Notes: generated by a model from the letters alone, not told the origin. 64,000 nucleotides of DNA from Pseudomonadota bacterium (GCA_031398625.1 JANNNQ010000447.1:11520-75519); one strand, 5' to 3'; positions 38,847-64,000 are shown, counted from the stretch's first letter. Numbers and translations are program-made.

Positions 38847-39842
38847 ATGAGCATGGACCCAATCCTGTGGGCCATGAAGGACGCACCGATTGCGGACGCT
38901 GAGGAGTGGGCAATCCTTGTCTGCCTCGCAGAGCGCGCCGACGAAGACGGGTGCTCATCCTTCCCATCGCAGGCCACGATCGCCAAGCGGATCAAGATGG
39001 CCGACCGCACGGTCCGCCGCCGCCTGGAGGCAATGGAATCCCGGGGTCTCATCAGTCGCGGCGACCAGTCCGCAGCGGCCTACCTCAAGGACAAGGCCCC
39101 GGTCGTCTGGGACCTTCTGATCCCTCTCTCGTGGTTCCCGAACCTGGATCGGATTCAGGAGTTCAGGGAACGCAAGGGGCGCGGACCGCTGTCGGTGGCG
39201 GATCGGCCCGACATCAGCGCCTCCCCGGACAAGCTGCGTCGTGTCGACTTTGGGGTACCTCGCCCCCCGGACTGGGGGACCGGGCGGACTTCAAGTCCGG
39301 GGGGACTCTCTGACCGGGCGGACTCTGGGACCAAAGCGACCGGACTTGAAGTCCAAAGCGACCGGACTACAAGTCCGACAACCCTCAAAGAACTAACCCT
39401 CCCCATTAACCCTCCTCTAGTCGGAGCCGAGACGGCACCGACGACAGAGGTTAAGCCGAAGCGGAAGCGTCGGACGGAAGCCGAACTGAACACCGACCGT
39501 CCCGAGCTTGGTCGGCTCTGCGATCACCTCGCAGAGCGCGTTGAGGGACATGGCTTCACTCGGCCCGTTGTGTCTCAGGACTGGCTCACCACCGCCCGCC
39601 GGATGCTCGACATCGACGGGTATACCGAGGATCAGATCCACCGAGCCATCGAGTGGTGTCAGGACAGCGACTTCTGGTACCCGAATGTCCGCTCGATGGA
39701 CAAGCTCCGCGAGCAGTACGAGACCTTGCGAGATCGCGCCATGTCCGAGCAGCGCAAGAAGGCGAAGGCCAAACCGCGCCCGGCCGACGGCAACCAAGAC
39801 CACTGGAACAACCCCAATGCCAGCTTCGGCCTACCCGCCTAA
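38847..39842 (+). CDS. replication initiator/organiser-like wHTH protein
   Basis: The N-terminus EEWAILVCLAERADEDGCSSFPSQATIAKRIKMADRTVRRRLEAMESRGLI is an HTH_36-type wHTH. It lies directly upstream of the loader and helicase genes. Confidence 0.5.
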   Translation: MSMDPILWAMKDAPIADAEEWAILVCLAERADEDGCSSFPSQATIAKRIKMADRTVRRRLEAMESRGLISRGDQSAAAYLKDKAPVVWDLLIPLSWFPNLDRIQEFRERKGRGPLSVADRPDISASPDKLRRVDFGVPRPPDWGTGRTSSPGGLSDRADSGTKATGLEVQSDRTTSPTTLKELTLPINPPLVGAETAPTTEVKPKRKRRTEAELNTDRPELGRLCDHLAERVEGHGFTRPVVSQDWLTTARRMLDIDGYTEDQIHRAIEWCQDSDFWYPNVRSMDKLREQYETLRDRAMSEQRKKAKAKPRPADGNQDHWNNPNASFGLPA

Positions 39843-39855
39843 CCGAAGGATCACC

Positions 39856-40518
39856 ATGACCACGCGCGACCAGTTCGAAGCACGTCTCCTCGCCAGCCTC
39901 GATGACATCGTCGCCGGTTACGAGGACGCCTACCGCAGCGATAACCCCAATGGACTCTGGGAGTCGTGGGCGGAGTCGGAGAAGTACCGGCTGCGATCCT
40001 GCATCCAGCGCTGGGTGGGCTACGTCCCGCCCGTGTTCCGTTCGGCAGACCTCGCCAAGCTCGGGCCCGAGCAGCACGGGGATGCCCTCCGCGGCTACCT
40101 GACGGGGACCACCCGAAACCTGATGCTTGCCGGGCCGATCGGCACCGGGAAGTCGTTCGCCGCTTGGGCTGTCGCCAATGAGGCTGCGGCCCGAGGCTGG
40201 CGCCCCCGGGCGTGGTCGACGCCTCGCCTGCTTCTGGACATGCGCCCCGAGGGCGACCCGCAGGCGTTCACCAACGCCTGCCTCGCGGACCTGCTGATCC
40301 TCGACGACCTCGGGGCCGCCCGACCGACAGATTGGGCGACGGAGCAGATCTACTCGATCGCGGAGGAGCGCTGCAACCAGCAACTGCGCACAATTGTCAC
40401 CACCAACTCGACGTTCGATCAGCTCACCGCCATCTGGGGTGCGCCGACGATGGACCGTCTTCGGCACGCCGGCACGAGTCTCGTCTTCAAGGGCGATTCC
40501 CGCCGGGGCCCGGTATGA
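39856..40518 (+). CDS. DnaC/IstB-like helicase loader ATPase
   Basis: Walker A LMLAGPIGTGKSF, Walker B LLILDDLG. Confidence 0.7.
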   Translation: MTTRDQFEARLLASLDDIVAGYEDAYRSDNPNGLWESWAESEKYRLRSCIQRWVGYVPPVFRSADLAKLGPEQHGDALRGYLTGTTRNLMLAGPIGTGKSFAAWAVANEAAARGWRPRAWSTPRLLLDMRPEGDPQAFTNACLADLLILDDLGAARPTDWATEQIYSIAEERCNQQLRTIVTTNSTFDQLTAIWGAPTMDRLRHAGTSLVFKGDSRRGPV

Positions 40519-43154
40519 GCGCCGCACTGGAGGCCGTCCCGGACGATGGTGGACGTCACGCGCCGCCGAACGACGTCGAGGCCGAGCGGTGCGTACTGGG
40601 GTCGCTGATGCTGTCCGCATCCGTGCTCGACGACGTCGCCCCGCTGATCTCGGGCAGGGACTTCTACCGCCCAGCCCACGAGACCATTTGGGAGGCGATC
40701 ACCGGGCTTGCCAGCGAAGGGAACCCCTTCGACGCCGTAGCTGTGGCCGACCGACTCGACGCCAACGGTGACCTGTTGCGTATCGGTGGACCGGTGTACG
40801 TCCACACTCTCCTCAGCAGTGTCCCAACGGCTGCCAGTGGCGGCTACTACGCCCGGATCGTCGCCGACAAGGCCGTCCGCCGCCGGGTCATCGACGCGGG
40901 AACCCGGATTGCCAGACTCGGCTACACCAGCACGGGCGACGAGGCCCTGAACCTCATGGAGGCCGAGGTGCTGGCCGCGAACGATCGCACCTCCACCGAG
41001 GACTACCGGGCGATCGGAATGCTGCTTGACGAGACCTTCGACGAGATCGAAGCCGCCGGGAAGCGCGAGCAGGGCGTGACCGGGGTGCCCACCGGGTTCA
41101 TCGACCTCGACAAGCTCACCAGCGGCCTCCACGCGGGTCAGTTGATCCTCGTGGCGGGTAGGCCAGCGATGGGCAAGAGCTGCCTCGGAATGGACCTTTG
41201 CAGGTCGGCGTCCATCCACCATGGCCTGACGTCGGTGATGTTCAGTCTCGAGATGGGCCGATCCGACATCACGACGCGGCTCCTGTCGGCCGAGGCGAAG
41301 GTGCAGCTTCAGAACATCCGCAAGGGCAACGTCGACGAAATCGAGTGGGCGGCTCTGGCTCGCGCCCGGACCAGACTCGACGACGCCCCGTTCTTCATCG
41401 ACGACAGCCCGAACCTGACCCTCGCGGACATTCGCAGCAAGGTTCGCCGGCTGAAGCAGAAGAACGACCTGAGGCTGGTTGTCATCGACTACCTCCAGCT
41501 AATGACCAGCGGGAAGAAGGTCGAGTCGCGCCAGCAGGAGGTGAGCGAATTCTCCCGGGCGCTGAAGCTTTTGGCGAAGGAAGTGGAGGTGCCGATCGTT
41601 GCGCTGTCTCAGCTGAACCGAGGGCCGGAGCAGCGGCAAGATAAGACACCGCAAGCATCGGACCTGAGGGAATCGGGATGCCTGACGCGGGAGACGACCT
41701 TGCTCAGAGCGGATACGGGCGCCCCAGTTAGCTTCGGGGAGCTCATGGACAAGGGGTGGGAAGGCGTCTCCGTCTGGTCACTGGACGACGACCGGAAGAT
41801 TGTCGCTGCACCCATAACCAACGTCTTCCCCTCTGGGGTCAAGCAGACGTTCAAAATGCTGATGGCCTCTGGCCGAACAGTGACCGCCACCGACACCCAC
41901 AAATTCAGGACGCTCCACGGTTGGACGGCGCTGGGTGATCTCGTCCCCGGATCGCGGCTTGCCATTCCCCGCGCAATCCCGGCGCCGATGACCGGTGGAC
42001 TGGGGTGGTCAACCTACAGGCTCGGACTGTTGGCCCATCTCCTGGGAGATGGCTGCGTACTGACGAAGCAGCCAGTCCACTACACCAGCGAGGACGAGGA
42101 GAACATTCGGTTCGTCACCGAGGCAGCGGCCGAGTTCGGCATTACTCCCCGTCGCGTGGCCCAAGGGAACTGGTGGCATGTCTATCTCCCCGCTCCAGCC
42201 GCCGGTCGCAATCCGATCAGCAACTGGTTCCGAGAGATGGGCATTGGCAACCTCCGCAGCCACGAGAAGCACCTGCCAGCAGAGCTGTTCGGAATGACGA
42301 ACGCTGAAGTGTGCACCTTTCTTCGCCACCTGTGGGCGACTGACGGCAGAGTGGCCGAGCCCTCGAGCATGGCCAGTGGCATCGCAATCATTTCCTACGC
42401 CACAACCAGTCGACGCCTCGCGGACGACGTGGCGCTCCTCCTGGCCCGCCTCGGAATCGTGGCGAGGATCAAGGTGGTCCCGGAGGAGCGCGGGAGGGTT
42501 GGCTACCGAGTCACTATCGCTGACGCCGGTTCGATGCGGATCTTCTGCGAATCCATTGGAGTGCATGGCGCCAGAGGGGTCAGGGCCGACCGTCTTCTCT
42601 CCGAGCTGGTGGGCAAGAGGCTCAACCCGAACAAGGGCGCCATCCCACGTGAGATGTGGGACGAGATCAGGTCGCTCCGGGCCGAGGCCGGCATGACGGA
42701 GCGCGCGTTCCAGAGTCGGCTCGAAACCAGTTACTGCGGGACCACGCTCTACAAGACGGGGCTGTCGCGTGAGCGGATGGGGAGAGCGGCAGAAATCCTC
42801 AACTCGGATGACCTCCGGGGCTTCGCCAGCGATGACGTGTTCTGGGACGAGGTTGTTTCGATCATCCCTGCGGCTGTCGTCCCGGTCTTCGACGCGACAG
42901 TCAAGGGCACGCACAGCTTCATCGCGGACGGGATCGTCGCGCACAACAGCCTCGAGCAGGACGCCGATCTGATCATCTTGCTGCACCGTCCAGACGTGTA
43001 CGAGAAGGAGTCTCCTCGGGCGGGTGAGGCGGACCTCATCGTTGCCAAGCACCGCAACGGGCCGACGGAAACGCTCAAGATGGTCTTCCAAGGCCACTAC
43101 TCGCGTTTCGCCGACATGGCCGACGACTGGACCCCTCCGGAGCGTGCCTCGTGA
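40515..43154 (+). CDS. dnaB: replicative DNA helicase DnaB, interrupted by an intein
   Basis: PPNDVEAERCVLGSLML, GRPAMGKS, VVIDYLQL and ALSQLNRGPEQRQDK. The exteins join as DLRESG / SLEQDADLIILLHR. Confidence 0.9.
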   Translation: MSAALEAVPDDGGRHAPPNDVEAERCVLGSLMLSASVLDDVAPLISGRDFYRPAHETIWEAITGLASEGNPFDAVAVADRLDANGDLLRIGGPVYVHTLLSSVPTAASGGYYARIVADKAVRRRVIDAGTRIARLGYTSTGDEALNLMEAEVLAANDRTSTEDYRAIGMLLDETFDEIEAAGKREQGVTGVPTGFIDLDKLTSGLHAGQLILVAGRPAMGKSCLGMDLCRSASIHHGLTSVMFSLEMGRSDITTRLLSAEAKVQLQNIRKGNVDEIEWAALARARTRLDDAPFFIDDSPNLTLADIRSKVRRLKQKNDLRLVVIDYLQLMTSGKKVESRQQEVSEFSRALKLLAKEVEVPIVALSQLNRGPEQRQDKTPQASDLRESGCLTRETTLLRADTGAPVSFGELMDKGWEGVSVWSLDDDRKIVAAPITNVFPSGVKQTFKMLMASGRTVTATDTHKFRTLHGWTALGDLVPGSRLAIPRAIPAPMTGGLGWSTYRLGLLAHLLGDGCVLTKQPVHYTSEDEENIRFVTEAAAEFGITPRRVAQGNWWHVYLPAPAAGRNPISNWFREMGIGNLRSHEKHLPAELFGMTNAEVCTFLRHLWATDGRVAEPSSMASGIAIISYATTSRRLADDVALLLARLGIVARIKVVPEERGRVGYRVTIADAGSMRIFCESIGVHGARGVRADRLLSELVGKRLNPNKGAIPREMWDEIRSLRAEAGMTERAFQSRLETSYCGTTLYKTGLSRERMGRAAEILNSDDLRGFASDDVFWDEVVSIIPAAVVPVFDATVKGTHSFIADGIVAHNSLEQDADLIILLHRPDVYEKESPRAGEADLIVAKHRNGPTETLKMVFQGHYSRFADMADDWTPPERAS
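41679..42947 (+). mobile_element. DnaB intein (423 aa) with LAGLIDADG homing endonuclease
   Basis: Starts CLTRET, ends VAHN followed by Ser+1. LAGLIDADG blocks LLAHLLGDGCV and FLRHLWATDGRV. Inserted at the conserved RESG/S(I/L)EQDAD site. Confidence 0.85.
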
Positions 43155-58931: not shown

Positions 58932-59162
58932 CTAGACGTCGATTCCGTCGGGCGGCGTCTCGGGGTCGCGGATCAGCTGACGGCTCTTCCGCTCCGCCCA
59001 CTCCTCGAACTCGTCTTTGTCCCAAACCCTCGTCCGGCGGACCCCGACGTAGTGAGTCTCTGGGAAGTCTGGCGTGAGTATCAACTGCTCGACGCGGGTA
59101 CGGGAAACGCCCAGCATCTTCACGACGTCGGCGAATCCCAGAAGCTCCACGAGGGTCAGCAT
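58932..59162 (-). CDS. HTH protein (excisionase/AlpA/MerR-like)
   Basis: MLTLVELLGFADVVKMLGVSRTRVEQL...RVWDKDEFEEW. The ORF part upstream of ATG 59162 has low GC3. Confidence 0.55.
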   Translation of the reverse strand: MLTLVELLGFADVVKMLGVSRTRVEQLILTPDFPETHYVGVRRTRVWDKDEFEEWAERKSRQLIRDPETPPDGIDV

Positions 59163-59188
59163 ACGGACCAAGGTCCTGTGTACTTGCT

Positions 59189-59206
59189 CCTGTGCATGTG
59201 CACAGG
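59189..59206. promoter_or_regulatory. perfect palindrome CCTGTGCA-TG-TGCACAGG
   Basis: It lies 27 nt upstream of ATG 59162, in the divergent region with 59293 (+). Confidence 0.4.
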
Positions 59207-59292
59207 GTAGCTTCATTGATGAGGCGCTGACCAGCGGCGCACGTCACAAGGAGTGCCGAAATGGCGATCCTCAAGCGGCTACGAGGCAGACA

Positions 59293-59511: not shown

Positions 59512-59693
59512 CGCGCCGCCTGCTGCTCCTCGGTTGGTGGAAGCGGGACTGGGCGCATTGGTCGGGCACGGCACGTCGGCGGATCAGCATCCCACCCGTC
59601 CGCCCATCCAACATCGCGGCGTCCCGCGAACCGCTTGACACCGACCTCCTCCTCTGGGAGCAGGAACTACGACACAAAGGAGTAGGCCGATGA
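59508..59693 (+). CDS. hypothetical basic protein
   Basis: ATGA-coupled, 61 aa. Confidence 0.45.
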   Translation: MTRRLLLLGWWKRDWAHWSGTARRRISIPPVRPSNIAASREPLDTDLLLWEQELRHKGVGR

Positions 59694-59911
59694 TGACCAT
59701 CGGAACTCTCTTCCTCGTCGCCTTCCTCTGGTTCGGCCACCGCCGAGGCTTCCTGGCCATCGGGTCCGTAGTCATCGGCCTACTCGTCGGCCTCGCTGCC
59801 TCCGGAGATGCCGCCGACTCCATCGGCAAGGGCGCCCGCGAATCCGCCGCCGCCATCGGCACAGGAATTCAAACCGCCGCCGTTTCCACCATGGACGCGA
59901 TAGTCAAATGA
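59690..59911 (+). CDS. 2-TM membrane protein (Spd-like position)
   Basis: ATGA-coupled, 73 aa. Confidence 0.5.
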   Translation: MMTIGTLFLVAFLWFGHRRGFLAIGSVVIGLLVGLAASGDAADSIGKGARESAAAIGTGIQTAAVSTMDAIVK

Positions 59912-61674
59912 CCGACATCATCGCGGAACCCACCGCGGAAACCGAAACACCGGAACCCGACCCGGGGCATGGTCTCACCGAGATCACCCCACCCCAGAGC
60001 GACAACGACTCACCGGCCGAGGAGTTCGCTCAGGCCCTCATGTCCGCCCCAGCAGCACTGCTGCTGGCCGGGAACAGTGCGGTGGCCGCCCTCTCTAGTG
60101 CGTTCCAGGTCGCGGGCGTCGCCGGTGTTGTCGGAACCACAGCTGCGGTCGGCGGGACTGCCGCAGTCGGCGCGGTAGTCCGGCGCGCCCACCGGGCCGA
60201 GACCGAACGGAAGGACAAGGCTGCAGGGAAGACCGTTGCCCCGAAACCGGTCAGCGCCCGCCAGGCGCGCAAGCAGGAACGGCAGGCCAAGCGCGCCGCT
60301 CGGGCCGCCAGCAACTCCCGTCGTGCTGCCACCCGCTCTGGCGCCGCGCCTGCTAGGTCGGGTGGCATCCCCTCCGGTGGGCGGCACGCGAAGACCGGCT
60401 CTCATCGTCCTGCCCGAACCCCCGTCCGCTCCGCGTTGGGCGTTGGCAAGGGATCCCCGGCAGGGCGGGGCTCAATTGGCAAGGGCGCAGGAAAGCCGGG
60501 CGCTGGGGTCGGTAGGCCATCAGGCAAGGCCCCGGTGTCCGCTAGCCGGACCTCGGGCATTCCTTCGGCAGGTCGCTCCGCGTCTTCCGGTTCAGCGGGC
60601 AAGCCAAGCAGGATCGCCTCCGCCGCGCGCCGTGGGATGGCTTCCGGGAAACGAACTGCGGGTGGCCCTGCCACTGGTGGTAGCCGGGTGGCCGGTGCTG
60701 CCCGGCGCGCGACCGGCGCTGCTGGACGCCGTGCATCTGGTGCCACCACGAACGCCGCACGCTCCGCCCGCAAGGCCGCAGCGGCAAGTCAGGCCCGACT
60801 CGGCCAGGCCGCCCACTCGGCCACCGGATCCCGCGCCGGCAGAGTCGCATCAGCTGCGGGCCGCCGGGTTGCTACGGGTGGCCGTGCCCTTGGTCGGGGA
60901 CTGCGGTCGGCCAGGAACACCGGCCGGGCAGCAGCGGCCGCAGCACGACAGGCCAGCGGTCCGCGAGGAGTCGCCAGGGCCGTCAGGCAAGCCGTCGCCC
61001 AGTCCCAAGCCGCCCGGAACGCCGCCACCGGCAGGCAGCAGACCGGCCTGCGGCGAGCCCGCCAGCGGGCCATCGCCGCATCCACCGGTGCTGGTGCCGC
61101 CGTCCTGACCGCCGGAGCGACCGGTGCGCGCAGGACCGGCCGGTGGGGATGGTGGCTCATCCGATCCGGCATAGCCCGAGCCACAGGCCAACCCATCCCG
61201 CTCCCACCCGGGCGCACCCCACCACCACAACCACAGACCGGTCACCCACCGGTCGCCGACACCGTCAGCCAGCCCGCCGGGCCAGCCGCACAACACCCAC
61301 CCACCATCAGCACAGGAGCACACACCATGTCACTCGGAAACGTCCTCGAAGAACTGTCCGGCCAGATGATCGCTGCCGCCGCCGGCTACGACCCCGACGG
61401 CATGGCCCAATGGGGACGCGACATGCGATCACTGGAGCAGGTGCTACTGAACATCGGCGGCGTTCTCCAGGCGATCCAGCGCGGCGCTGACGACTTGCCC
61501 GTCAACCAGGTCGTGAAGGAAACCATCGGCGCCGTCGGTGAACTCCAGCAGGCGTGCTCATCTGCGGCTGCGGACATCCACGCCACGTTCCAGGCCGTCC
61601 ACCGGGCCGAGTTGGAGCGGCTCGAGAACCCGCGCGCCAACGAGCACAAGTGGGACGCGGCGGCGAACCGGTGA
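59908..61674 (+). CDS. 588-aa Ala/Arg/Gly/Ser-rich basic low-complexity protein with globular C-terminus
   Basis: ATGA-coupled upstream and GTGA-coupled to the traB-like gene. About 400 aa of A/R/G/S low complexity, then a structured 115-aa C-terminus. Confidence 0.55.
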   Translation: MTDIIAEPTAETETPEPDPGHGLTEITPPQSDNDSPAEEFAQALMSAPAALLLAGNSAVAALSSAFQVAGVAGVVGTTAAVGGTAAVGAVVRRAHRAETERKDKAAGKTVAPKPVSARQARKQERQAKRAARAASNSRRAATRSGAAPARSGGIPSGGRHAKTGSHRPARTPVRSALGVGKGSPAGRGSIGKGAGKPGAGVGRPSGKAPVSASRTSGIPSAGRSASSGSAGKPSRIASAARRGMASGKRTAGGPATGGSRVAGAARRATGAAGRRASGATTNAARSARKAAAASQARLGQAAHSATGSRAGRVASAAGRRVATGGRALGRGLRSARNTGRAAAAAARQASGPRGVARAVRQAVAQSQAARNAATGRQQTGLRRARQRAIAASTGAGAAVLTAGATGARRTGRWGWWLIRSGIARATGQPIPLPPGRTPPPQPQTGHPPVADTVSQPAGPAAQHPPTISTGAHTMSLGNVLEELSGQMIAAAAGYDPDGMAQWGRDMRSLEQVLLNIGGVLQAIQRGADDLPVNQVVKETIGAVGELQQACSSAAADIHATFQAVHRAELERLENPRANEHKWDAAANR

Positions 61675-63758
61675 CTATCACCCCGACCGCCACGGCGAAA
61701 CCTGTCACTGCACCCGCACCGGTCAAACCGCCCCGGGACTGGTCCTGGCGCCACGGCCCGATCATCGGGCCCGTGAACGCCGGACTCGGCCTGTGCGCGG
61801 TGAGCATGGTCGGTGACCTCACCGGTGTGCTCGGCTGGTCGGGTGCGGTTGCCGGGGCAGCCGCAGCGGGCGGGGTGACATTCCGCGCCCACCGTCAGGA
61901 CATCAGCCCCCTCGGTCTCGGCTACCGGGCGGCGTGCTGGATGACAGCAGGGGGGTGGATGTCGTGGGCGCTGGCCACATCCGCATGGTCACCCGATGTC
62001 CTCGCCGGGCTCGCGGCCGGTGTCCTCGCCGCTGGCCTCGCCGCACCGGAGATGGCTGAGCACGAGACACGCGTCAACGACGGTCGGCGAAAGGAGGCCG
62101 ACGCGCTGGCGCAGGCTCAGGCGAGGGACGCCGCAGACAAGCGGCGGATAGCGATCGCCCTCGAATGGGAAGCGCGACTGGCCAAGGCCACCGGATTCAA
62201 AGGCTTCCAAGTGGTCGGAGTTCAGGACTGGCCGGACGCGGGCGGGTACACGATCGAGACCCGCCTGCCCGGCGGCGTCACCAAACGGATGCTGGCCGGC
62301 ATGTCCGAAGCCCTGGCCACCGATGCAGACCTGCCTCTCGGGTGCGGTGTCGAGGTCGGTGGCGGCAAGTCCCGCGGGTTCGTTCTACTGCGGGTCTCCA
62401 CCGTCGACACCACCGCCGAAGCCCAGCCATACCCGACCGACATCACCCCACTGACCCTCACGGGCCCGCTTCCGATCGGGATGCACCGTGCCAGCGTCCC
62501 CGCGACCGTGACGATCCTCGAGGATCCGCTGATGATCGTTGGCCGACGCGGGTCCGGCAAGACGGTGGCACTGCAGACGCTCAACGCCGGGATCGCCCGA
62601 TGTGTCGACGCACTCGTCTGGCACATCGACCTCAACGGCGCCGGGATGAGCTCACCGTGGCTCGACGACTTCCTCGCCGGCCGCATCGACCGCCCGCCCA
62701 TCGACTGGGTCGCCGCAACCCCCGACGAAGCGCTACTGATGGTCACCGTCGCCGTGAACATCGCCAAGGGCCGCAAGGTCGCCTACAAGGCGCTGATGCG
62801 GTCAGTCAACGACGACAAGATCCCCATCTCTGCCGCTGTCCCCGCGATCGTCATCGTTCTCGACGAAGGCGCCGAAGCGGTCGCCGCCAGCCGAGGCTAC
62901 GCCAGCCTCGCCGCCGCACTAGAAGAGCTCATCTCGATCGCCCGCGCGACCCGGCTACAGATCGTGCTGTCCGGCCTGCGCGCGACCAGCGAGACCATCC
63001 CCACCACGCTCAAGAGGCAGGTCGGGATCAAAATCCAGATGCGCCCCGAGGATGTCGAGGAGGTCGCCCAACTCTTCGGCTGGGCTGGTGGCATCACCGT
63101 CGAGGACGCCCCCTATCCCGGGTCCGGCCTGCTCAAGACGCCCGAGTCAAGGGGCATCGCCCCGTACCGCGGGTTCGACCTGCGGCCCGCCGACATCCGG
63201 CGCATCGCAGCTGAGACCGCGGCGTGGCGCCCGTACCTCGACAAGCCGTCCGCCGACATCGGCGGCACCGCGTACGCCAACCGCTGGGCCCGCTACCGGA
63301 CCTGGTACACCGACCAAGGAGGAGACGTCACCACCATGCCCACCACCCCTGCTCAGCCCGAGCCGACCCGCCCGGAACAGAGTGCCGGCCAGGGAATCGC
63401 CGGTCTCGGTGGCGCTAAGGAGAACCTCGACAACAACCTGGCCAAGCTTCGGGCGCTCCGCGAGCAGGCCGAGGGCCCGGTGTCGGCCAGCCCGGACTTC
63501 GATGCCGAGTTCGCCTCGATCATCGCCGGGGAGACCTGGGACGTGCCGGGCAGCACCGAAGAGGCGGATGGCCGGGAGCGGATGGTCGAGATCCTCGGGG
63601 TCGCCGGGCCCGATGGGCTGCACCGCGACACGCTCGCTGCGGCCCTGGCCAAAATCGGGGTGACCCCCTCGCGATCCACGCTCTACCGCTGGCTCGACGC
63701 CTCTGCCCAGAAGATCGAGGGCAAGCCCGGATGGTTCCGGATCCTCCCGTCTCACTGA
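61671..63758 (+). CDS. traB: FtsK/SpoIIIE-family DNA translocase, TraB-like
   Basis: N-terminal TM segments, Walker A VGRRGSGKTVAL, Walker B AIVIVLDEGAE, followed by a short-repeat array. Confidence 0.75.
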   Translation: MTITPTATAKPVTAPAPVKPPRDWSWRHGPIIGPVNAGLGLCAVSMVGDLTGVLGWSGAVAGAAAAGGVTFRAHRQDISPLGLGYRAACWMTAGGWMSWALATSAWSPDVLAGLAAGVLAAGLAAPEMAEHETRVNDGRRKEADALAQAQARDAADKRRIAIALEWEARLAKATGFKGFQVVGVQDWPDAGGYTIETRLPGGVTKRMLAGMSEALATDADLPLGCGVEVGGGKSRGFVLLRVSTVDTTAEAQPYPTDITPLTLTGPLPIGMHRASVPATVTILEDPLMIVGRRGSGKTVALQTLNAGIARCVDALVWHIDLNGAGMSSPWLDDFLAGRIDRPPIDWVAATPDEALLMVTVAVNIAKGRKVAYKALMRSVNDDKIPISAAVPAIVIVLDEGAEAVAASRGYASLAAALEELISIARATRLQIVLSGLRATSETIPTTLKRQVGIKIQMRPEDVEEVAQLFGWAGGITVEDAPYPGSGLLKTPESRGIAPYRGFDLRPADIRRIAAETAAWRPYLDKPSADIGGTAYANRWARYRTWYTDQGGDVTTMPTTPAQPEPTRPEQSAGQGIAGLGGAKENLDNNLAKLRALREQAEGPVSASPDFDAEFASIIAGETWDVPGSTEEADGRERMVEILGVAGPDGLHRDTLAAALAKIGVTPSRSTLYRWLDASAQKIEGKPGWFRILPSH

Positions 63759-63878
63759 GACAACACCCACCCGAACCCCGTTCTTTGTGCTCGTCTCACG
63801 TCTCAGCCCCCGTAAACAGCGGTGAGACGTGAGACGAGACGCCCCATGAGACGCCCGTGAGACACCGATGAGACGGAG
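63745..63878. repeat. array of (A/G)TGAGAC(G/A) repeats incl. a 16-bp perfect inverted repeat (clt/TRS-like)
   Basis: GAGAC occurs 7 times forward (63757, 63824, 63831, 63836, 63848, 63859, 63870) and 3 times reverse (63749, 63793, 63800). CTCGTCTCACGTCTCA (63790-63805) pairs with TGAGACGTGAGACGAG (63823-63838). The last three copies are 11 bp apart. Confidence 0.7.
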
Positions 63879-64000
63879 ATCGCTCGTGCACGCCGACCAG
63901 CCCGCCGACCACACCTGGCGCCGCTTCACCTGGGTCGTGGCCATCCTCGCCGGACTGGCCCTCGCCGTAGGTCTCGCCCTCTCCTACGCCTCCGTGTACC
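63868..64000 (+). CDS. membrane protein, N-terminal part (3' end outside window)
   Basis: MRRRSLVHADQPADHTWRRFTWVVAILAGLALAVGLALSYASVY..., open to the window end. Confidence 0.4.
   Translation, partial: MRRRSLVHADQPADHTWRRFTWVVAILAGLALAVGLALSYASVY

Follow-up and report, generated by a model that had tools for sequence, protein, structure and literature searches.

A TGAGAC word array over the 3′ end of a phage-borne TraB-like translocase gene as a probable clt-type recognition site

The window analysed here, a 64,000-nt stretch of DNA recorded under a Pseudomonadota bacterium (GCA_031398625.1, JANNNQ010000447.1:11520-75519), carries near its right end the gene of a TraB-like double-stranded DNA (dsDNA) translocase of the FtsK/SpoIIIE family (61671-63758, plus strand, 695 aa, GTG start), and the 3′ end of this gene is covered by a cluster of the short word TGAGAC. 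We propose that this array is where the adjacent phage translocase recognises and loads onto its DNA, a cognate site equivalent to a clt made of TraB recognition sequence (TRS) words, and we give this reading a probability of about two in three. It is supported by the array itself, its departure from chance, its conservation, the covariation of its word with a predicted recognition helix, and the folds of the protein. The original prediction compared the locus with Streptomyces plasmids and needs one correction: judged by its gene content, the replicon is no plasmid but a temperate siphophage of actinobacteria.

All ten copies of GAGAC, nine of them as TGAGAC, are found inside the 128 bp from 63748 to 63875, seven forward and three reverse as originally counted. 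The extension to (A/G)TGAGAC(G/A), which had been proposed for the whole set, fits seven copies out of ten and fails for the rest, one of the ten being CGAGAC. The informative core of the word is 6 bp with weak flanks, so that the word is slightly shorter than the 8 bp first assigned to it. On the other hand, both the perfect 16-bp inverted repeat and the three copies phased at 11 bp in the original prediction are real. The first copy begins 10 nt within the translocase gene, whose stop codon TGA (63756-63758) doubles as the first letters of one TGAGAC, and the array reaches about 120 bp past the end of the gene, the phased direct copies ending right before the GGAGA and the GTG start of the downstream gene. 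A clt-type site is a cluster of a 7-9 bp word in direct and/or inverted repeats, placed in the pSVH1 and pWTY27 type beside or across the 3′ end of the translocase gene; here the ten copies form two palindromic blocks and three direct copies, and overlap that end. The elements of the array are the following.

63757, 63824, 63831, 63836, 63848, 63859 and 63870, plus strand: the seven forward copies of GAGAC.
63749, 63793 and 63800, minus strand: the three reverse copies (GTCTC).
63748-63762: proximal palindrome cGTCTCA-c-TGAGACa (core GTCTCA-c-TGAGAC, 63749-63761), covering the last two codons and the stop of the translocase gene.
63790-63805 and 63823-63838: perfect 16-bp inverted repeat with two words per arm and a 17-nt loop; arms CTCGTCTCACGTCTCA and TGAGACGTGAGACGAG.
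63835-63840, plus strand: degenerate copy CGAGAC, abutting the 16-bp inverted repeat and kept as GAGACGAGAC in the related loci L026, L031 and L032.
63846-63876, plus strand: three direct copies, ATGAGACG, GTGAGACA and ATGAGACG, in 11-bp phase (TGAGAC at 63847, 63858 and 63869).

The array is not due to chance. When any 6-mer was scored in any 134-bp stretch of 200 order-2 Markov simulations of the window, the densest cluster held 4-6 copies, against 9 observed. The enrichment of the motif that the original prediction called for is local: TGAGACR is not over-represented in the 64 kb as a whole (19 observed versus 20.6 expected), and 9 of these 19 occurrences sit within 128 bp. Outside the array TGAGAC is found as 16 scattered single copies, 4 on the plus and 12 on the minus strand. 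The word therefore shows neither the genome-wide enrichment nor the strand skew of FtsK orienting polar sequences (KOPS) or SpoIIIE recognition sequences (SRS). The minus-strand bias of the scattered copies is not significant and probably reflects codon usage, nearly all genes being on the plus strand.

As had been assumed, the start of the translocase gene is GTG 61671, which overlaps the upstream stop. Searches of Pfam, NCBIfam and the PDB with the single protein sequence gave weak matches or none, so that a family profile was required; the profile matched the FtsK motor (2iuu) in the PDB at 1.8e-12, and the translocase matched phrog_31069 (FtsK/SpoIIIE-like) with an E value of 7e-103. Its AlphaFold2 (AF2) model, with a predicted local distance difference test score (pLDDT) of 83, retrieved FtsK and TcpA in Foldseek with E values of 1e-15 to 1e-16. 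Walker A reads GRRGSGKT, and G294, G296, K297, D398 and E399 are invariant, which gives the protein the Walker A and B motifs of an FtsK/SpoIIIE-type RecA-fold motor. By tblastn it is 31-39% identical to plasmid translocases of Frankia, Thermobifida, Nocardiopsis and Streptomyces, and its identity to those of some actinophages is 29-42%. In the model, three Gly/Ala-rich hydrophobic helices (residues 32-102; a simple hydropathy scan flags one segment only) and a coiled coil (108-174) are followed by a beta-rich domain, a RecA-type motor superposing on FtsK/TcpA, a linker modelled as disordered and, at the C-terminus, a domain of three helices and a wing. As modelled, the domains are arranged as has been described for TraB (PMC4447253; PMC3583192). 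The C-terminal parts are as follows.

63543-63755, plus strand: C-terminal winged-helix domain (H-H-H-wing), pLDDT 87.5 when modelled alone.
63672-63701, plus strand: predicted recognition helix RSTLYRWLDA, within the winged helix.

The best Foldseek match of this domain is the DNA-bound winged helix of ArgR (probability 0.99, query-normalized TM-score (TMq) 0.67-0.70), followed by Fur, PadR and ScpB, and its profile matches ArgR in the PDB at 7e-6. The fold is thus that of a winged helix; the one line of evidence that it reads the word is the covariation of helix and word in relatives.

A protein search yielded translocase relatives of 45-78% identity on phage-like contigs, one of them a prophage in Kineosporia sp. 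NBRC 101731. We compared the spacers behind the translocase gene in L026, L027, L028/29, L032 and L031, which hold 8-10 copies of GAGAC, 8 of them as TGAGAC. In the closest loci, L026-L028, to which conservation of offsets is limited, the copies stand near the positions they have in the window relative to the translocase stop (-9/-14, -1, about +33, +66, +78, +90, +101 and +112), the pair at -9/-14 and -1 forming the proximal palindrome in all three. Over six loci spanning 45-78% protein identity, the cores of two of the three distal direct copies are invariant and that of the third is nearly so, while the bases between them differ and their spacing is 11-12 bp. Identity to the window is 68-98% in word columns versus 27-73% in the other spacer columns. 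Elsewhere in these loci TGAGAC is absent or at background, and most relatives have equivalent inverted repeats made of their local word.

Among relatives of 33-42% identity, many loci also have an array at or over the translocase stop, made of a different word. The layout is shared: a proximal block of mixed orientation with a hairpin, then tight direct copies distally. The words found were these.

GTCAC(A): Thermobifida phage P1312 and relatives.
CCCGGAC(A): L007, L008 and L010/11.
GACAAGC: L015, L018 and L020.
CGACAG: L044.
GTGAGAAC: L003.
TGACGCAAG: Frankia plasmid pFQ12.
CGTTAC: Nocardiopsis plasmid pSQ10, where 11 of the 11 copies of the word in the locus belong to the array.

The neighbours of L007 and L018 are NUDIX, SSB and Prim-Pol genes, as in AICEs (integrative and conjugative elements of actinomycetes) or plasmids. 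Since arrays stand at the translocase stop in phages, plasmids and islands, the array travels with the translocase across these contexts. Words and predicted recognition helices are paired as follows, other types of C-terminal domain being paired with other words.

S[RK]xT[LV]YR[WD]: TGAGAC.
SQATLFRW: TGAGA[AC].
PEATLYRW: TGAGAAC.
HRTTISGW (HRTTISGWL): GACAAGC.
TRQTIVGW (TRQTIVGWL): CGACAG.

The L047 translocase is only 33% identical overall to the window protein, yet it has the helix SRATLYRWL and ten copies of TGAGAC. Moreover, neither L047 nor L032 has a homologue of the downstream protein of about 300 aa, and both keep TGAGAC, so the word follows the translocase and not the neighbour. These comparisons, which are correlative and cover about 30 loci, support the view that the word tracks the predicted recognition helix rather than overall protein identity or the downstream gene. 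It is with helix alpha-3 of the winged helix that TraB binds the 8-bp TRS repeats of clt (PMC4447253; PMC4170104; PMC3583192), and work cited in PMC3583192 has this helix set TRS specificity, with which the covariation agrees. The clt/TRS reading of the original prediction therefore gains from the TraB domain plan, the 3′-end position, the conserved word and its tracking of the helix in relatives.

Many of the arrays, whatever their word, also contain a semi-conserved element like CTGACCTGC(N)GTAAC at +18 to +90 past the translocase stop. It is present in 14 of 30 loci (L001, L004, L013, L017, L019, L025, L030, L031 and others), against about 4.7 expected, and absent from the window.

Several observations weigh against recognition of the array by the translocase. 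FtsK gamma domains are absent from the top 50 Foldseek matches of the C-terminal domain. Homology to the experimentally characterised TraB proteins (of pSVH1, pIJ101 and pWTY27) appears to be indirect, and no TraB of the pSVH1 type was recognisable among the plasmid matches to the translocase. The covariation argument is weakened by the linked partner proteins, which vary along with the locus as well and might in principle themselves read the word. Furthermore, the array is found in only a minority of phage-borne relatives (about 8 of 46 IMG/VR loci); no 3′-end array was found in Hiyaavirus, in many IMG/VR loci or in the transfer-proficient plasmid-phage pZL12. Because most surveyed phage-borne relatives lack it, the array is no requirement of the protein family. 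As for position, the clt of pIJ101 is located elsewhere and not at the 3′ end of tra (PMC3583192), which makes the 3′-end position typical and not universal.

The array-less loci include L023, L024, L033-L040, L058 and L081, and in those inspected the next gene abuts or overlaps the translocase stop. Compared with the array loci, they define two classes of actinophage translocase loci. Strong clusters of k-mers 1-2 kb upstream of array-less translocases were considered as an alternative clt and rejected; in L035, the locus examined, the cluster is a coding Ser/Gly/Arg-rich repeat of the partner protein.

The words could instead be operators at which a transcription factor regulates the membrane-protein genes downstream. 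Candidate readers are the helix-turn-helix (HTH) of the downstream protein, a Kor repressor of the GntR type, or a response regulator of the host acting on the 11-bp-phased repeats. Indeed, only 10 nt separate the phased copies from the downstream start, and the copies adjoin its ribosome-binding site (RBS), the downstream protein has a weak C-terminal HTH, and GntR genes are found upstream of the module in L026, L031 and L032. However, the array always starts at or inside the translocase stop whatever gene follows, and about ten copies in both orientations are excessive for a simple operator. A consensus scan of 63300-64000 found no promoter-like or terminator-like site, and the promoter and terminator readings were rejected on this ground. 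The GntR version was also rejected: no GntR homologue was detected in the window, including the neighbouring open reading frames (ORFs), and the GntR-HTH_17 divergent regions of relatives contain no TGAGAC. The operator function that the original prediction had offered as an alternative is further weakened by the TGAGAC arrays kept in L047 and L032 in front of a different downstream gene, and we consider it unlikely. Lower still do we place the possibility that the inverted repeats work as RNA hairpins, that is, as a factor-independent terminator or stabiliser, with the word a by-product of hairpin duplication. The array folds into RNA at -58 kcal/mol (z-score -5.7) with its perfect 16-bp stem, and the array-less relative Galactica has a plain terminator hairpin at the same place. 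Yet no U-tract or T-run follows the hairpin, 6 of the 10 copies lie outside the 16-bp inverted repeat, the three direct repeats among them, and a hairpin needs complementarity, not one word retained at 45-78% identity across arms and direct copies. A secondary terminator role for the hairpin could nevertheless accompany recognition.

It is very improbable, finally, that the array is a phage replication origin made of iterons or a packaging (pac/cos) site, even if origins and the binding sites of small terminases typically show short repeats in two orientations and a large terminase gene lies 3.3-6.4 kb downstream in relatives. No replication initiator gene was identified beside the array, whose neighbours are the translocase and membrane proteins, and the same type of array stands beside the translocase in plasmids and AICE-like islands without a terminase. 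Iterons are typically longer than 6-8 bp and are direct repeats beside an initiator gene or origin; the words here are 6-8 bp and of mixed orientation. The iteron alternative of the original prediction thus loses ground, with no adjacent rep gene and with a different cluster of repeats and palindromes, at 39266-39380, lying upstream of a DnaB-like helicase gene. That cluster is unrelated to TGAGAC: it holds seven copies of CCGGACT, with three palindromes of the CGGACTnnAAGTCCG type among them, lies some 830 bp before the helicase gene, and is itself a candidate replication origin or operator.

Coming back to the array as the loading site of the translocase, the mechanism that we infer has three steps. 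The pump, presumably anchored in the membrane, would form an FtsK-type ring. Its C-terminal winged helices would then read (G/A)TGAGAC(G/A), and the presence of some ten words, in either orientation, over 130 bp would allow high-avidity, element-specific capture of the double-stranded phage genome. ATP-driven pumping would finally carry the captured DNA through a membrane or septum, the flanking membrane proteins probably taking part. In this manner the phage may move its own DNA between cells or hyphal compartments without virions.

The genes of the module around the translocase are given below.

59690-59911, plus strand: small membrane protein of 73 aa with one hydrophobic segment, the first conserved gene of the module; homologues at the same position in L026, L027 and L028 are 50-82% identical.
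59908-61674, plus strand: partner protein of 588 aa, its stop overlapping the translocase start.
63875-63879, plus strand: likely RBS (GGAGA), 6 nt before GTG 63886.
63886-64000, plus strand: start of the downstream membrane protein gene, which continues beyond the window.

The partner has an N-terminal hydrophobic segment, a long basic region rich in Ala, Arg, Gly and Ser, and a C-terminal helical domain, and gave no match in Pfam, PHROG or NCBIfam. Its C-terminal 120 aa or so are kept immediately before the translocase in loci of phages, AICE-like elements and Hiyaavirus (L001, L007, L008, L015, L018, L023, L024 and L033); the middle region is variable, basic and of low complexity. From this sequence pattern it looks like an obligate partner of the translocase. 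The downstream gene most likely starts at GTG 63886 and not at ATG 63868 inside the last repeat, because of its alignment with the L027 and L026 homologues. Its N-terminus is 74-82% identical to those proteins (289-300 aa, with 3-4 hydrophobic helices and a weak C-terminal HTH); the sequence past 64000 was deduced from relatives, in which a YdjM-like membrane protein comes next. The parts of the module stand in the following order, seen best in the closest loci: small membrane protein, partner of about 590 aa, translocase, spacer of about 130-190 bp, membrane protein of about 300 aa with the weak HTH, and the YdjM-like protein.

A GntR-family gene lies upstream of the module in L026 (3-686), L031 (3411-4561) and L032 (3066-3389), paired with a divergent HTH_17 gene in L026 and L031; the arrangement resembles the traR/korA-traB kil-kor layout of Streptomyces plasmids. 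The window itself has one HTH_17-like ORF on the minus strand (58932-59216).

The module occupies the right end of the window, which is a tailed-phage genome and not the conjugative plasmid or AICE on which a TraB is expected. The window begins within a major head protein gene, followed by genes for a tail assembly chaperone, tape measure, tail proteins, a holin-like protein, a leftward integrase, a Sak4-like protein, a methyltransferase and the DnaB-like helicase, nearly all window genes being on the plus strand. The DnaB-like ORF (40212-43154, 980 aa) has helicase matches at residues 117-489 and, apart from these, matches at 871-969, a pattern suggestive of an insertion, for example an intein.

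A reverse search of genome and viral collections with the pattern ATGAGACN{5,6}TGAGACAN{3,4}ATGAGAC gave 128 loci, a translocase being adjacent in none. It was uninformative because most of the inspected loci were plain tandem duplications of 11-12 bp whose flanks are identical. ATGAGAC triplets, or longer series, with 11-12 bp spacing are found between genes in unrelated high-GC bacteria (L091 4143-4172, L134 1765-1794, L164, L178 and others). Two Nocardia species have such a triplet after a TetR-HTH_7 gene ending in SRATxYRYLK; the helix SRATxYRYL beside it looks coincidental as a pairing, this helix pattern being common, and was rejected.

Many actinophages have annotated FtsK-like translocases, for which roles in DNA segregation (PMC4569894) and a link to host development (PMC13587820) have been suggested. 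A pump together with a conserved cognate array in a phage points to a specific, testable function, the sequence-specific capture and pumping of its own dsDNA. We go one step further in a tentative joint proposal, which we think somewhat more likely to fail than to hold as a whole. A temperate siphophage lineage, comprising the window phage, its metagenomic relatives, the Kineosporia prophage and, with another word, Thermobifida phage P1312, would stably carry a complete Streptomyces-type conjugation module (TraB-like pump, partner protein, membrane proteins and cognate clt), so that phage or prophage dsDNA can spread from hypha to hypha or through septa with no need of virions; separately, the helix-word pairs (SRxTLYRW with TGAGAC, xRxTIxGW with GACA(A)G, and others) would form a readable recognition code. 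The capture and pumping of its own dsDNA by a phage would blur the line between transduction and conjugation in mycelial actinobacteria. The roughly 30 natural helix-word pairs are also a data set at hand for decoding, and possibly re-engineering, TraB specificity.

Among known systems, FtsK-KOPS and SpoIIIE-SRS combine a hexameric dsDNA pump with a C-terminal winged helix that reads an 8-bp word, and the motor of the window protein matches the fold of FtsK. KOPS and SRS are dispersed and strand-skewed along chromosomes, where they set the direction of pumping. In contrast, the word of the window is clustered at one locus in both orientations and not enriched elsewhere. The Streptomyces plasmid-phage pZL12 (phage ZL12) also is a phage genome with an FtsK-like tra gene after a large partner gene; it differs in having no array after tra, and its identity to the window protein is only about 29% over the motor region. 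Thermobifida phage P1312 is a virion-forming isolate with an integrase; its ORF63 (annotated as a DNA segregation ATPase) is 42% identical over the motor and is followed by a stop-codon-overlapping GTCAC(A) array of the same bipartite layout, its word and type of C-terminal domain being different. The published description of P1312 mentions neither the array nor a conjugation-like role (PMC4569894).

The TraA-clt system of pWTY27, a theta-type Streptomyces plasmid, resembles the window in that the array begins inside the tra gene and extends past it: its clt takes in 16 bp of traA and the next 159 bp, contains direct repeats of 7 bp as well as inverted ones, and was mapped by electrophoretic mobility shift assays, footprinting and transfer assays, TraA footprinting its repeats (PMC3583192). 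Its word is TGACACC, with four DC1 copies against ten in the window, which differs too in its distal 11-bp phasing and phage context. TraB-clt of pSVH1 from Streptomyces venezuelae shares with the window the FtsK-like translocase (in the window a predicted membrane protein), the C-terminal winged helix and clustered words of about 8 bp (TRS 5′-GACCCGGA-3′; PMC5133688; PMC4447253), and the CCCGGAC(A) word of the relatives L007, L008 and L010/11 overlaps the pSVH1 TRS. In the window the word is TGAGAC, the replicon is a tailed temperate phage, and binding is what the translocase would be expected to do by analogy. We would class the array with the TraB-clt systems, as one whose word, TGAGAC, is new and whose host element, a temperate phage, is unusual.

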